DNA from: Nannocystales bacterium
GTDB lineage: Bacteria; Myxococcota_A; Polyangia; Nannocystales; Nannocystaceae
DNA length: 64,000 nucleotides
NCBI GenBank assembly: GCA_050633305.1
Contig: JBOEGF010000024.1
Location: 320,001-384,000, forward strand
Direction of reading: 5' to 3'
In this document: positions 8,466 to 11,400 of the stretch, in pieces
How positions within the stretch are numbered: position 1 is the stretch's first letter
Layout: every line of letters starts with the position of its first letter
Made by a program: the position numbers and the translations under genes
The notes under the pieces: model-generated
What the model was told of the DNA's origin: nothing
Database searches by the model: none
Seen by the model: the letters and a program-made list of their open reading frames with translations, nothing else

Positions 8466-11400
8466 ATGACGCGCTCGAGCAAACAATCACTTTGGGCGCG
8501 TCGTTGGACGCCGCTGAGCCTCCTCTGCGCCCCTGCTTCTCTCCTCCTTTCCCTGCATCCGCAGGCTGCGACGGCCTCGATGGGGCTCCCCAACGCCGCC
8601 ACGGTTCTTCCGATGGTCGGCGTGCCCAACCAAGTCGACGGTCTCTCCGTCGAAGAGTTGGACGATGGCACTACGGTGCTTCGACTCAAGGGGACCCTCA
8701 AGCCGACGTTCAACGTCTATCGGCTGGATGATCCGGACCGCTTGGTCGTCGACATCGCCAAGAGTGCGAAGGGGCAGGTGGTTCCACATGTACCCCTGGA
8801 CACCTGGGCATGCGGTCGTGTGACCGTGGGTGGCGTTTCCGAGCGTGGGGCGGACCTGGTTCGGGTCGTCGTGCAGCTCAAGCGCGAAGCGAGCTACATC
8901 GTGGTGCCCGATGGCGACACCCTCGTCGTCACGGTCACGCCTCGAGAGGCTCCACCTGAGCAGTACTTCAGCCGCAAGAGCGCGACGAAGCGCAAGGCGG
9001 AGATGGAGTCGCAGCAACGGCGGGCGAAGAAGCTCGAAGCCGACGCGACCAAGCTCAAGGCGGCCGCGAGTGCGGAAGCGAAAGCGGCACGCGCCAAGGC
9101 AGAGGCCGCGACCCGAAAGGTCCGCTCGGCTGAAGCCGCGGCGAAGCAAGCCCGCGCCGCCGAATCACGTGCCCGCGCTTCGGAGGCCGAGGCCAAGCGC
9201 GAACTCAAGGGCGCGAAGTCGAACCGGCTTCAGGTTCGCCGGGCGCTGAAGAAAGCGACACAGGCCCGCGAGAACGCCGAGTCGGCTCGCAAAGCAGCCG
9301 AGCAGAAACTCGCGAGTGCCGAGACCACGGCGGCGGCGAAGCGCAAGAACGCTGAACGCTTGCTCGCCGATGCCGAAGCGGTCGCGCGCAAGCGCCTCGC
9401 GGACGCCGCAAAGTCGAAGGCCCAGGCCCAGCGTGAACTCGCGGATGCCCGTGGCTCGAAAGAAGCGGCGAAGGTCGAGCTCAGCGTGGCTCGAGCGGAG
9501 GCGGCGAAGTCGAAGGCCGCGAGCGCACGGCGTCTTGCCGAGGCCGAAGCCAAGGCCAAGAGCGCGCAGTCCGATGCCGAGCGGGCAAAGCGAGCCGCTG
9601 CACAGGCGGACGCCGAGGCGAAGAAAAAACTCGCCGCTGCCGAATCCAAGGCGAAGGCGCGTTTGGCCGCAGCACGCTCGGAGGTCGCAGCCGCAAAGAA
9701 AAGTGTCGCGTCGGCGGAGTCGAAAGCGAAGCTCCGTCTCGCGGCCGCGAAGTCCGATGCGGCGGCTGCCGAGAAGCGGGCCTCCGAAGCCGAGCAGCGT
9801 GCGAAGACGATCTCCGCGGCCGCTGAATCGAAGGCCAAGGAGCGGCTGGCCCAAGCCGATCGGAATGCGCGTGCGACGGAAGCCAAGGCCGACCGGCGGG
9901 CACGGGCAACCGAGGCCAAGGCTGAGCAACGCGCGGCCGCCATCTTGGCATCGGCGCGGGATCGAGCTGCGAAGGACTCCGCCAAGGAGCTTGCCAGCGC
10001 AAAGCGTGCCGCAGATGCCCTGGTCGCCAAGGCCAAGAGCGACGCGACCGCGTTGAAGAAGAAGCGTCTCGCAGAAGCCGAGGCGGATGCGGCGGCCAAG
10101 GTCGCACGGGCCGAACGCGCCGCGCGGACCTCCGCGCAGAAGCGCCTGGACGCCGCCGAGGCGGAAGCCGAGAAACGGCTCGCCAGCGCCCGGAAGAAAG
10201 CCGAGAAGGATGCGATCTCTCGCGCGGAGAAGGAACTCGCACGCGTCCGTAGCCGCGGGGAGACCGAAGTCGCCGCTGCCGCGAAAACGGCGCGTTCCAA
10301 GGCGCAGACCGACGCCAAGAAGGAACTCCTCGCCGAGCGCACGCGTATCGAGGCTGATGCCAAGCGCCGTGTTGCGGCTGCGGAGTCCAAGGCTGCCAAG
10401 GCCGAGGCTGCAGCCGAAAGCAAGATGGCGCGGGCTGATGCGATGCTCGCCTCGGCATCGAAGACTCTGGCGGAGGCCAAGGCCGACCGCGCCGCTGCAC
10501 AGAAACTACAGAAGACGGCGGAGCAGAAGCTCGCCTCGGCCGAAGCTGCGCGCAAGCGTGCGGTGTCGGAGAAGGCCAGCGCCGCGCAGCAACGGCAAGC
10601 TTCGGAGAAAGCGCTCGTCGAAGCGCGAGCCGCCGCGGAGTCGAAGCGAGGCCTGGCTCGGCGACGGGCCTCGGCTCGCCTGGCCGAGGCCGAGAAGTCC
10701 CGCGATGCGGCAGTGGCCCGTCAGAGCGCGGCAGCAAAGAAGCTCGGTGCGCTCGAGCGCCAGGCCGAGAAAGCTCGGTCGGCCCGTGACTCGGCCCGGA
10801 CGGACAAGGTCCAGGCTGAGGAACAACTCGCGGCACTGGCACAGGAGCGAGACTCGCTCAAGTCCCAGCTTGCAAAGCGCGACGCCGAACTCGCGGCGAT
10901 GCAGCGCAAGATCGATGAGGCTCCGGCGAAGGAGCGCGATGCGCTTCGGGCTCAGCTGGCACAGCGAACCGCGGAACTGGCGGCAGTCCGAGGCAAGCTC
11001 GACGAGGCCCCGGCGAAGGAGCGCGACGCACTCAAGGCCCAGCTTGCGAAACGAACTGCCGAGTTGGCGGCGATGGAGCGCAAGATCGAGCAAGCTGCTG
11101 CGAAGTCGGACTCCCGCTCGGCATCCGCAAAATCGAAGAAAAAGCGAAGCGCGCGAGGTCCGGCGAAGGTCCAGGACGTGCGCTTTGAGAACGACGGCTC
11201 GGAGTCGCGTGTCATCGTCGAGTTCAACGGCGCTGCGCGGTACGAGGGAATGACCCTCACACCGACGATTCAGATGCTGCGCTTCTCGGATGCGAAGCTC
11301 TCGCGGAAGCTCGAGCGCTCGCTCGACGCGTCGAAGTACGACGGCTCGGTTCGTGTGGTGACCAGCTTTGCGGAGGGGGATGACGCGAAGGTCATCGTCT

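Follow-up and report, generated by a model that had tools for sequence, protein, structure and literature searches.

A long helical arm between the AMIN domains of a myxobacterial type IVa pilus secretin, PilQ

A 1505-residue protein encoded in the analysed window, 64,000 nucleotides of a Nannocystales genome, is by its sequence a genuine type IVa pilus secretin, PilQ, with a long helical arm between its two AMIN domains, and this arm is apparently an undescribed feature of a known family. The helical-arm design is common to many little-studied myxobacteria. As read from structural models, the arm probably folds back in alanine-cored antiparallel hairpins, and the reading favoured here, held with a little less than even confidence, is that a jointed lateral arm places a second, highly conserved wall-binding domain tens of nanometres from the pore and so enlarges the footprint of the anchor. 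It is still debated how the pilus machine stays attached to the wall while it exerts pulling forces above 100 pN, and how it locates the pole; in current models the AMIN domains sit beside the pore on short linkers. In this branch of the Myxococcota one AMIN domain lies at the end of an arm of 240-1900 residues, and the rest of the machine has kept the same size.

The pilQ gene, its operon and its domains

The single uninterrupted reading frame described in a sequence-only reading of this DNA stands: it is stop-free, and the letters of the window are without any N. The gene closes the pilMNOPQ series of a pilMNOPQ-aroK-aroB operon (Table 1). The PilQ profile TIGR02515 matched residues 1076-1498 with 408 bits against a cut-off of 284, and Pfam recognized two AMIN stretches, STN (N0), Secretin_N (N3), and Secretin; by both Pfam and fold the AMIN domains are two only. 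Identity as GspD, the type II secretion secretin, was rejected because TIGR02517 gave 202 bits where 351 are needed. The signal region has an n/h/c pattern by inspection, and conservation of A37 across 79 sequences reaches 90% or more. The AMIN1 model matched the AMIN domain of AmiC (Z 14.0, rmsd 1.9 over 102), while that of AMIN2 matched the B2 domain of Neisseria PilQ (Z 15.1, rmsd 1.6 over 97). Myxococcus xanthus PilQ (3jc8/3jc9, 901 aa, three AMIN domains) is encoded in the same pilMNOPQ operon and aligns with E 6e-150; its AMIN1 (33-133) corresponds to aa 55-160 here, its AMIN3 (331-448) to aa 893-1008, and its core (473-895) to aa 1070-1500, so the insert occupies the site of the middle AMIN domain.

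Table 1. Features of the pil operon and of PilQ, in positions of the window
Feature	Position	Strand	Basis
pilM	5456..6523	+	PF11104, E 1e-64
pilN, normal stalk length	6520..7215	+	PF05137; stalk 61 aa
pilO, normal stalk length	7228..7872	+	PF04350; stalk 57 aa, the same as in 81/81 rodless loci
pilP, lipoprotein	7872..8447	+	PF04351, E 0.0012 (under the curated cut-off), and operon position
pilQ, 1505 aa	8466..12983	+	ORF, Pfam, TIGR02515, alignment to M. xanthus PilQ
Probable Sec signal peptide, aa 1-37, A-x-A site	8466..8576	+	Inspection only
AMIN1, aa 60-159, distal end of arm, orthologous to M. xanthus AMIN1	8643..8942	+	Alignment, profile, model
Helical insert, 741 aa (aa 160-900), replacing the middle AMIN of M. 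xanthus PilQ	8943..11165	+	Composition, model, alignment
Predicted antiparallel hairpin 1, aa 217-284, turn 250-253	9114..9317	+	Break in model and match to 5xu0
Predicted antiparallel alanine-cored hairpin 2, aa 672-786, turn 727-729, family-wide	10479..10823	+	Match to 7nsu, Ala conservation
Pro-kinked helical repeat, 29 aa (87 bp), about 3 copies	10843..11089	+	DNA repeat analysis
AMIN2, aa 901-1001, orthologous to M. xanthus AMIN3	11166..11468	+	Pfam, alignment, model
N0, N3 and secretin core, aa 1076-1505	11691..12980	+	TIGR02515; STN, Secretin_N, Secretin
aroK and aroB, directly 3' of pilQ	13030..14735	+	PF01202, PF01761

The host genome (11.0 Mb, 92% complete) has its closest named relatives under Nannocystaceae and Enhygromyxa labels. 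It contains two further secretins elsewhere, PilB (805 bits, above cut-off), and four PilT-family matches above cut-off. The sole other AMIN-domain ORF found in it is a 298-aa frame at G000:C4:201914-202807 (+). Downstream of the operon lie a probable lipoprotein of 326 aa (14772-15752, +), with no family match in Pfam or NCBIfam, and a 119-aa gene (15822-16181, +) without a Pfam match, which looks similar to roadblock/MglC-type proteins; MglC of M. xanthus is MXAN_5770. A 1052-aa TPR protein (18618-21776, +) just downstream of pilQ-aroKB-aroQ-accBC resembles M. xanthus SgmX in size and TPR content only, SgmX being a pilus activator of 1060 aa according to the accessible text of PMC7668184. 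Four ORFs of 386-657 aa without a Pfam match, around 26984-30501 (-), 39312-40469 (+), and 42250-43875 (-), are near a group of flippase-like, sulfotransferase, 2OG-oxygenase, and arylsulfotransferase genes.

Composition and predicted fold of the insert

The insert between the AMIN domains, put at about 720 residues in the sequence-only reading, measures 741. Its description there as almost pure Ala/Lys/Glu/Arg was too strong, the actual share being 69%. Between aa 170 and 895 the composition is 33% Ala, 13% Lys, 12% Arg, and 10.5% Glu, with a net charge of +78, and large hydrophobic residues (LIVMF) make up only 10% of the insert. Pro is absent from aa 165 to 819. The Pro-free helix-like run of 655 residues is the longest in the genome (runner-up 406); it stands out in this way among 80,021 six-frame ORFs, and a genome-wide inflation of helical proteins was rejected for that reason. 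Across 57 rods, the autocorrelation of hydrophobic residues peaks at 7, 14, 21, 28, and 35 and at 11, 18, and 25, opposite charges are paired at i+3 and i+4, and the heptad phase persists past 42 residues. The peaks and the charge pairing over all 57 rods indicate that the helix is amphipathic and has a heptad/hendecad register. For the present protein taken by itself the autocorrelation is modest (z 2.6 at 7, 3.4 at 11, and 3.1 at 29) and the heptad signal weak, only 7 of 25 sequence windows giving p of about 0.05 or less. No family in Pfam or NCBIfam covers the insert, no TolA model in these collections matched the rod, and a search of the ESM Atlas gave no usable match.

An AlphaFold monomer of aa 55-1004, built on a 16-sequence alignment (pLDDT 73, pTM 0.31), shows two AMIN sandwiches joined by six long helices that are interrupted at aa 250-253, 455-461, 579-580, 727-729, and 848-849. 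Structural matches serve solely to read the geometry of the model: hairpin 1 matched the adaptor-protein hairpin 5xu0 (Z 9.5, rmsd 1.3 over 67) and hairpin 2 that of colicin E9 in 7nsu (Z 12.6, rmsd 1.0 Å over 115). The turn of hairpin 1 is present in about 63% of family sequences. Hairpin 2 is the best-kept part of the rod, with an occupancy of about 1.0 in 79 family sequences, in which Ala is 88-100% conserved at 678, 685, 692, 699, 706, 713, and 720 and again at 742, 749, and 756, with a Gly/Asp turn at 729 between the two series; on its surface, residues of the type of R752, A749, and E702 are invariant or nearly so. In an alacoil, Ala occupies one core position of each heptad in both helices, and the conservation of hairpin 2 follows this pattern. 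Covariation and charge complementarity across hairpin 2 gave no signal, invariant columns being dominant.

A second monomer model, of PilQ from Plesiocystis pacifica (60-sequence alignment, pTM 0.38), also contains antiparallel hairpins. Its hairpin 2 module, at pLDDT 85-95, follows a three-helix Z whose two hairpins cover residues 307-405 and 404-490; the first of them corresponds to aa 683 onward in the 1505-aa protein. A likeness of this Z-module to F-BAR domains (Z up to 11.5, rmsd 8-11 Å) was set aside as a generic arrangement. The arm probably folds back in alanine-cored antiparallel hairpins in both proteins as modelled, although single-chain models may fold as hairpins what pairs between the chains of a ring, and their global shape is unreliable. 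The continuous helix of about 100 nm first proposed is not what the models predict: they break at turns conserved in the family, and the flanks form antiparallel hairpins. At 0.15 nm per residue a straight insert would measure 108 nm and the central strand 71 nm, while the distance from AMIN1 to AMIN2 in the Z-fold would be roughly 33-53 nm, varying with the Pro kinks (45-53 nm as computed; 33 by hand with the last helix straight).

Conservation, selection and distribution in the Myxococcota

Forty genomes were searched and the PilQ region was taken from 31 relatives. The insert (368-974 aa) is present in 13 of 13 family members with both AMIN domains on the contig, while two more are contig-end cuts. 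A protein search with aa 50-330 returned 82 matches of 1115-1754 aa, all 82 with an insert of 374-974 aa, in a set of proteins of 827-2634 aa in which this count cannot reveal rodless forms. Cultured carriers are P. pacifica SIR-1, with 385 inserted residues in a protein of 1125 aa, and Enhygromyxa salina, with 455-484 in proteins of 1192-1228 aa. An assembly artefact, raised as a concern at the outset, was rejected on the presence of the insert in independent assemblies, including those of cultured species, and on purifying selection. Repeats in the DNA of the insert are diverged (87-bp unit, 2.8 copies, 72% matches), which indicates neither a collapsed nor a duplicated assembly. Public contigs aligned to the gene were fragmentary, none running across the whole insert, and neither confirm nor deny it.

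Comparison of coding sequences indicates that the rod is under purifying selection. Against the closest congener (G002), dN/dS is 0.06-0.08 for the rod, 0.025 for AMIN1, 0.09 for AMIN2, and 0.02 for the core; against three more distant congeners it is 0.12-0.31 for the three main rod segments and 0.16-0.55 for the 29-aa repeat. The repeat region of G002 is longer by 58 residues, or two units. Its pilM (locus L034) is split over two frames (profile 1-48 and 47-345), by frameshift or assembly error. Among short indels (30 residues or fewer) between close pairs, 95 of 112 have a helix-phase length, where a uniform expectation gives 45, and 51 of the 112 are exactly 7 or 11 residues; the pairs overlap, and single events are thus counted repeatedly. 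AMIN1 is more conserved than AMIN2 in four of four congener pairs (89-97% versus 78-92%), which argues that the far end of the arm matters. In several rodless relatives, the rodless sister families among them, AMIN1 gives a low score or goes undetected, a result that comes mostly from one clade and from a profile trained on rod-bearing sequences. Three genomes of the same family (G007, G009, and G023, 90-94% complete) gave no PilQ orthologue with this query, their best matches (E 1e-14 to 1e-18) being other secretins; a loss of type IVa pili in these two genera is possible on this sequence evidence.

The PilQ length survey across the Myxococcota suggested by the sequence-only reading was run. 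In the phylum sample the core was matched in 120 of 151 genomes, this one counted, and the other 119 have open frames of at least 1500 aa in 19 and at least 2000 aa in 10. Sixty of the 119 were fetched, picked non-randomly by length (long, middle, and short). With all loci pooled, 57 PilQs have an insert at the same site, of 238-1924 aa with a median of 691, and the longest rod-bearing PilQ has 2663 aa. A FastTree phylogeny was built on 425 columns from 107 cores, excluding two truncated cores and most of the distant named loci. In it, every rod-bearing protein falls in one clade with support 0.90, in which losses are nested in one five-family group and in G026, G039, and L071. The shortness of G140, G168, and L065 is only apparent, the gene being broken into frames. 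Among 80 named loci, helical inserts are absent beyond the closest, Nannocystaceae-like ones. Homology of the rod between families is not demonstrable by sequence, so a single origin rests on insert position and on the core tree. The rod-bearing PilQs group as a single clade of Myxococcota in which the rod was secondarily lost in places. Within this family an insert is the norm, and other parts of the phylum have inserts of up to 1924 aa; the architecture, earlier proposed as undescribed, was indeed not found described, but it is not exceptional. Rod repeats are lineage-specific, of 7, 11, 14, 25, 29, and about 200-230 aa. The loci L153:364-8352 (-), L159:351-7766 (-), and L150:353-7645 (-) encode PilQs of 2663, 2472, and 2431 aa, with rods of units of about 200-230 aa and recurring Gly-centred turns. 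At L057 (G029) and L189 (G154), PilQs of about 530 aa lack a recognizable AMIN domain, both within the ORF and upstream of it.

Function of the arm and comparison with known systems

In the favoured reading, PilQ would be an ordinary type IVa pilus secretin with its middle AMIN domain swapped for an extended, jointed arm of helices. A ring would carry 12-15 such arms, lying sideways along the wall; AMIN2 would grip peptidoglycan under the pore as usual, and AMIN1 would grip it far away. Such a wide-footprint anchor could extend the reach for septal or polar wall during recruitment and could spread the retraction load, with the hairpins serving as stiff segments and reserve length. As the periplasm is some 20-30 nm wide, an arm of this length has to run sideways or be folded. 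Retraction forces above 100 pN are reported for gonococcal pili. In favour of the lateral arm are the conserved insert with its purifying selection and phase-keeping indels, the strong conservation of AMIN1, the unchanged PilO stalk, and the hairpins in two separate models. The accessible text of PMC10653833 reports that AMIN domains are needed for polar recruitment of PilQ in M. xanthus, which also speaks for the lateral arm, and that one is sufficient; AMIN1 need not then be load-bearing, which counts against it. The eightfold variation in length and the loss of the insert in many relatives likewise argue that no fixed distance is selected.

That the arm spans an unusually wide periplasm, or that the insert is an artefact after all, is extremely improbable, and nothing was found in favour of either. 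With partial and duplicate loci left out, the PilO stalk measures 57 aa at all 81 rodless loci and 57-59 aa at all 36 rod loci, while the PilN stalk has 61-62 aa in 20 of 21 rod loci (69 in the other) and 62-66 in the four rodless loci that aligned; for the four longest rods examined, the PilO stalk is longer by only 2 residues. Since neither stalk scales with the rod, the arm does not bridge a wider periplasm, and the earlier view that it is no radial spanner holds; the insert, N-terminal of AMIN2, is also off the path from pore to inner membrane. In the rod clade, the aligned part of PilN is about 30 residues longer than in the outgroup; the additional loop sits beyond the stalk and is retained in the rodless members of the clade. 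Also unlikely is a straight, continuous, parallel coiled coil of about 100 nm formed between chains. Its 655 residues without Pro, a heptad phase beyond 42 residues, and phase-keeping indels would suit it, but the conserved turns are rich in Gly, Asp, and Ser and vary in length, every seventh position is Ala rather than Leu with few large hydrophobic residues, and both models reverse at the turns, in the P. pacifica module with high pLDDT. The hairpins could, by analogy with adaptor-protein hairpins that pack side by side, be binding surfaces that join the arms of adjacent subunits or adjacent secretins into a collar or lattice, by which machines would be spaced or clustered at the pole. This is rather unlikely: the hairpin module is the best-conserved part of a rod that otherwise varies, and its geometry resembles the hairpins of MacA, HlyD, and AcrA, but generic helical arrangements give scores in the range of the adaptor matches (Z 10-13), the module is unrecognizable by sequence outside the family (real versus reversed 50 versus 45 bits, 29/41), and variable rod length is a poor fit.

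It is doubtful that the rod is a passive linker, in which helical repeats expanded by slippage are tolerated and selection merely keeps them soluble and helical. The eightfold length range, lineage-specific repeats, several complete losses, and, in the accessible text of PMC10653833, the adequacy of a single AMIN domain in M. xanthus would be expected of it; however, the hairpin module is conserved position by position across the whole family, dN/dS of the rod is as low as that of AMIN2, AMIN1 is strongly conserved, and the rod is kept in many families despite a cost of up to 1900 extra residues per subunit. Equally doubtful is a built-in spring, in which alanine-cored hairpins would unzip under retraction force like a sheepshank, yielding tens of nanometres per subunit. 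Coiled coils unzip at 10-20 pN. The alacoil of colicin E9 is reported to open in the accessible text of PMC4899799. If the spring were real, the secretin would absorb shocks or sense load, acting between the pore and the distant wall, and lineages would tune its capacity by adding modules (the units of about 200-230 aa in PilQs of 2200-2660 aa). Very unlikely, finally, is an arm that drives or chaperones secretin assembly instead of a pilotin, or that is proteolysed off after assembly. The accessible text of PMC13190605 gives pilF as undetected in Nannocystales and Haliangiales, and a PilW/PilF-like match (E 1e-15) occurs in only 1 of 12 family genomes, but pilF is, in the same text, also missing from the rodless Anaeromyxobacteraceae. 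Many rod genomes of other families, the longest rods included, have pilotin-sized matches (open frames of 266-307 aa), none above cut-off and with only 35 candidates scored per genome, and on these matches a pilotin substitute is unsupported as a general explanation.

For the lateral arm, the natural length series, two cultured carriers (P. pacifica and E. salina), and the tractable M. xanthus make anchor geometry, pole capture, and load sharing testable. No description of a PilQ with a long helical arm was found in the literature, where passing mention in supplements or subscription papers is possible, and the word "coiled" is absent from the accessible text of PMC10653833, PMC13190605, and PMC6060248.

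Among known systems, domain II of TolA is likewise an Ala/Lys/Glu-rich periplasmic helix. The likeness is compositional only: the helix here is flanked by AMIN domains and matched no TolA model, and identity as TolA (inner-membrane anchor, domain II, and domain III) was rejected on these grounds. AMIN domains fused to a TolA-like helical charged region are reported for several delta-proteobacterial proteins, listed apart from PilQ, in the accessible part of de Souza et al. 2008 (PMC2572700), a table of which lists the 1125-aa P. pacifica PilQ without comment. Alacoil hairpins (the receptor-binding domain of colicins E3 and E9, ROP, and the MacA/HlyD/AcrA adaptors) are alike in predicted geometry, with rmsd 1.0-2.1 Å over 67-126 residues, and share Ala at every seventh position with the insert, but have no sequence homology to it (8-24% identity); the arrangement is a widespread one and implies no shared function. 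PilQs of Pseudomonas, Neisseria, and Vibrio (PDB chains of 571-761 aa) share the N0-N3-secretin core, and AMIN2 here shares the fold of the Neisseria B2 domain; however, those chains have half the length and could not accommodate such an insert, and even the longest PilQ chain in the PDB has only about a third of the length of the largest rod-bearing PilQs. In M. xanthus PilQ, whose AMIN domains are joined by flexible linkers according to the accessible text of PMC10653833, a middle region of about 197 aa holds the second AMIN domain, whereas here about 735 aa of helix stand in its place and two AMIN domains are left.
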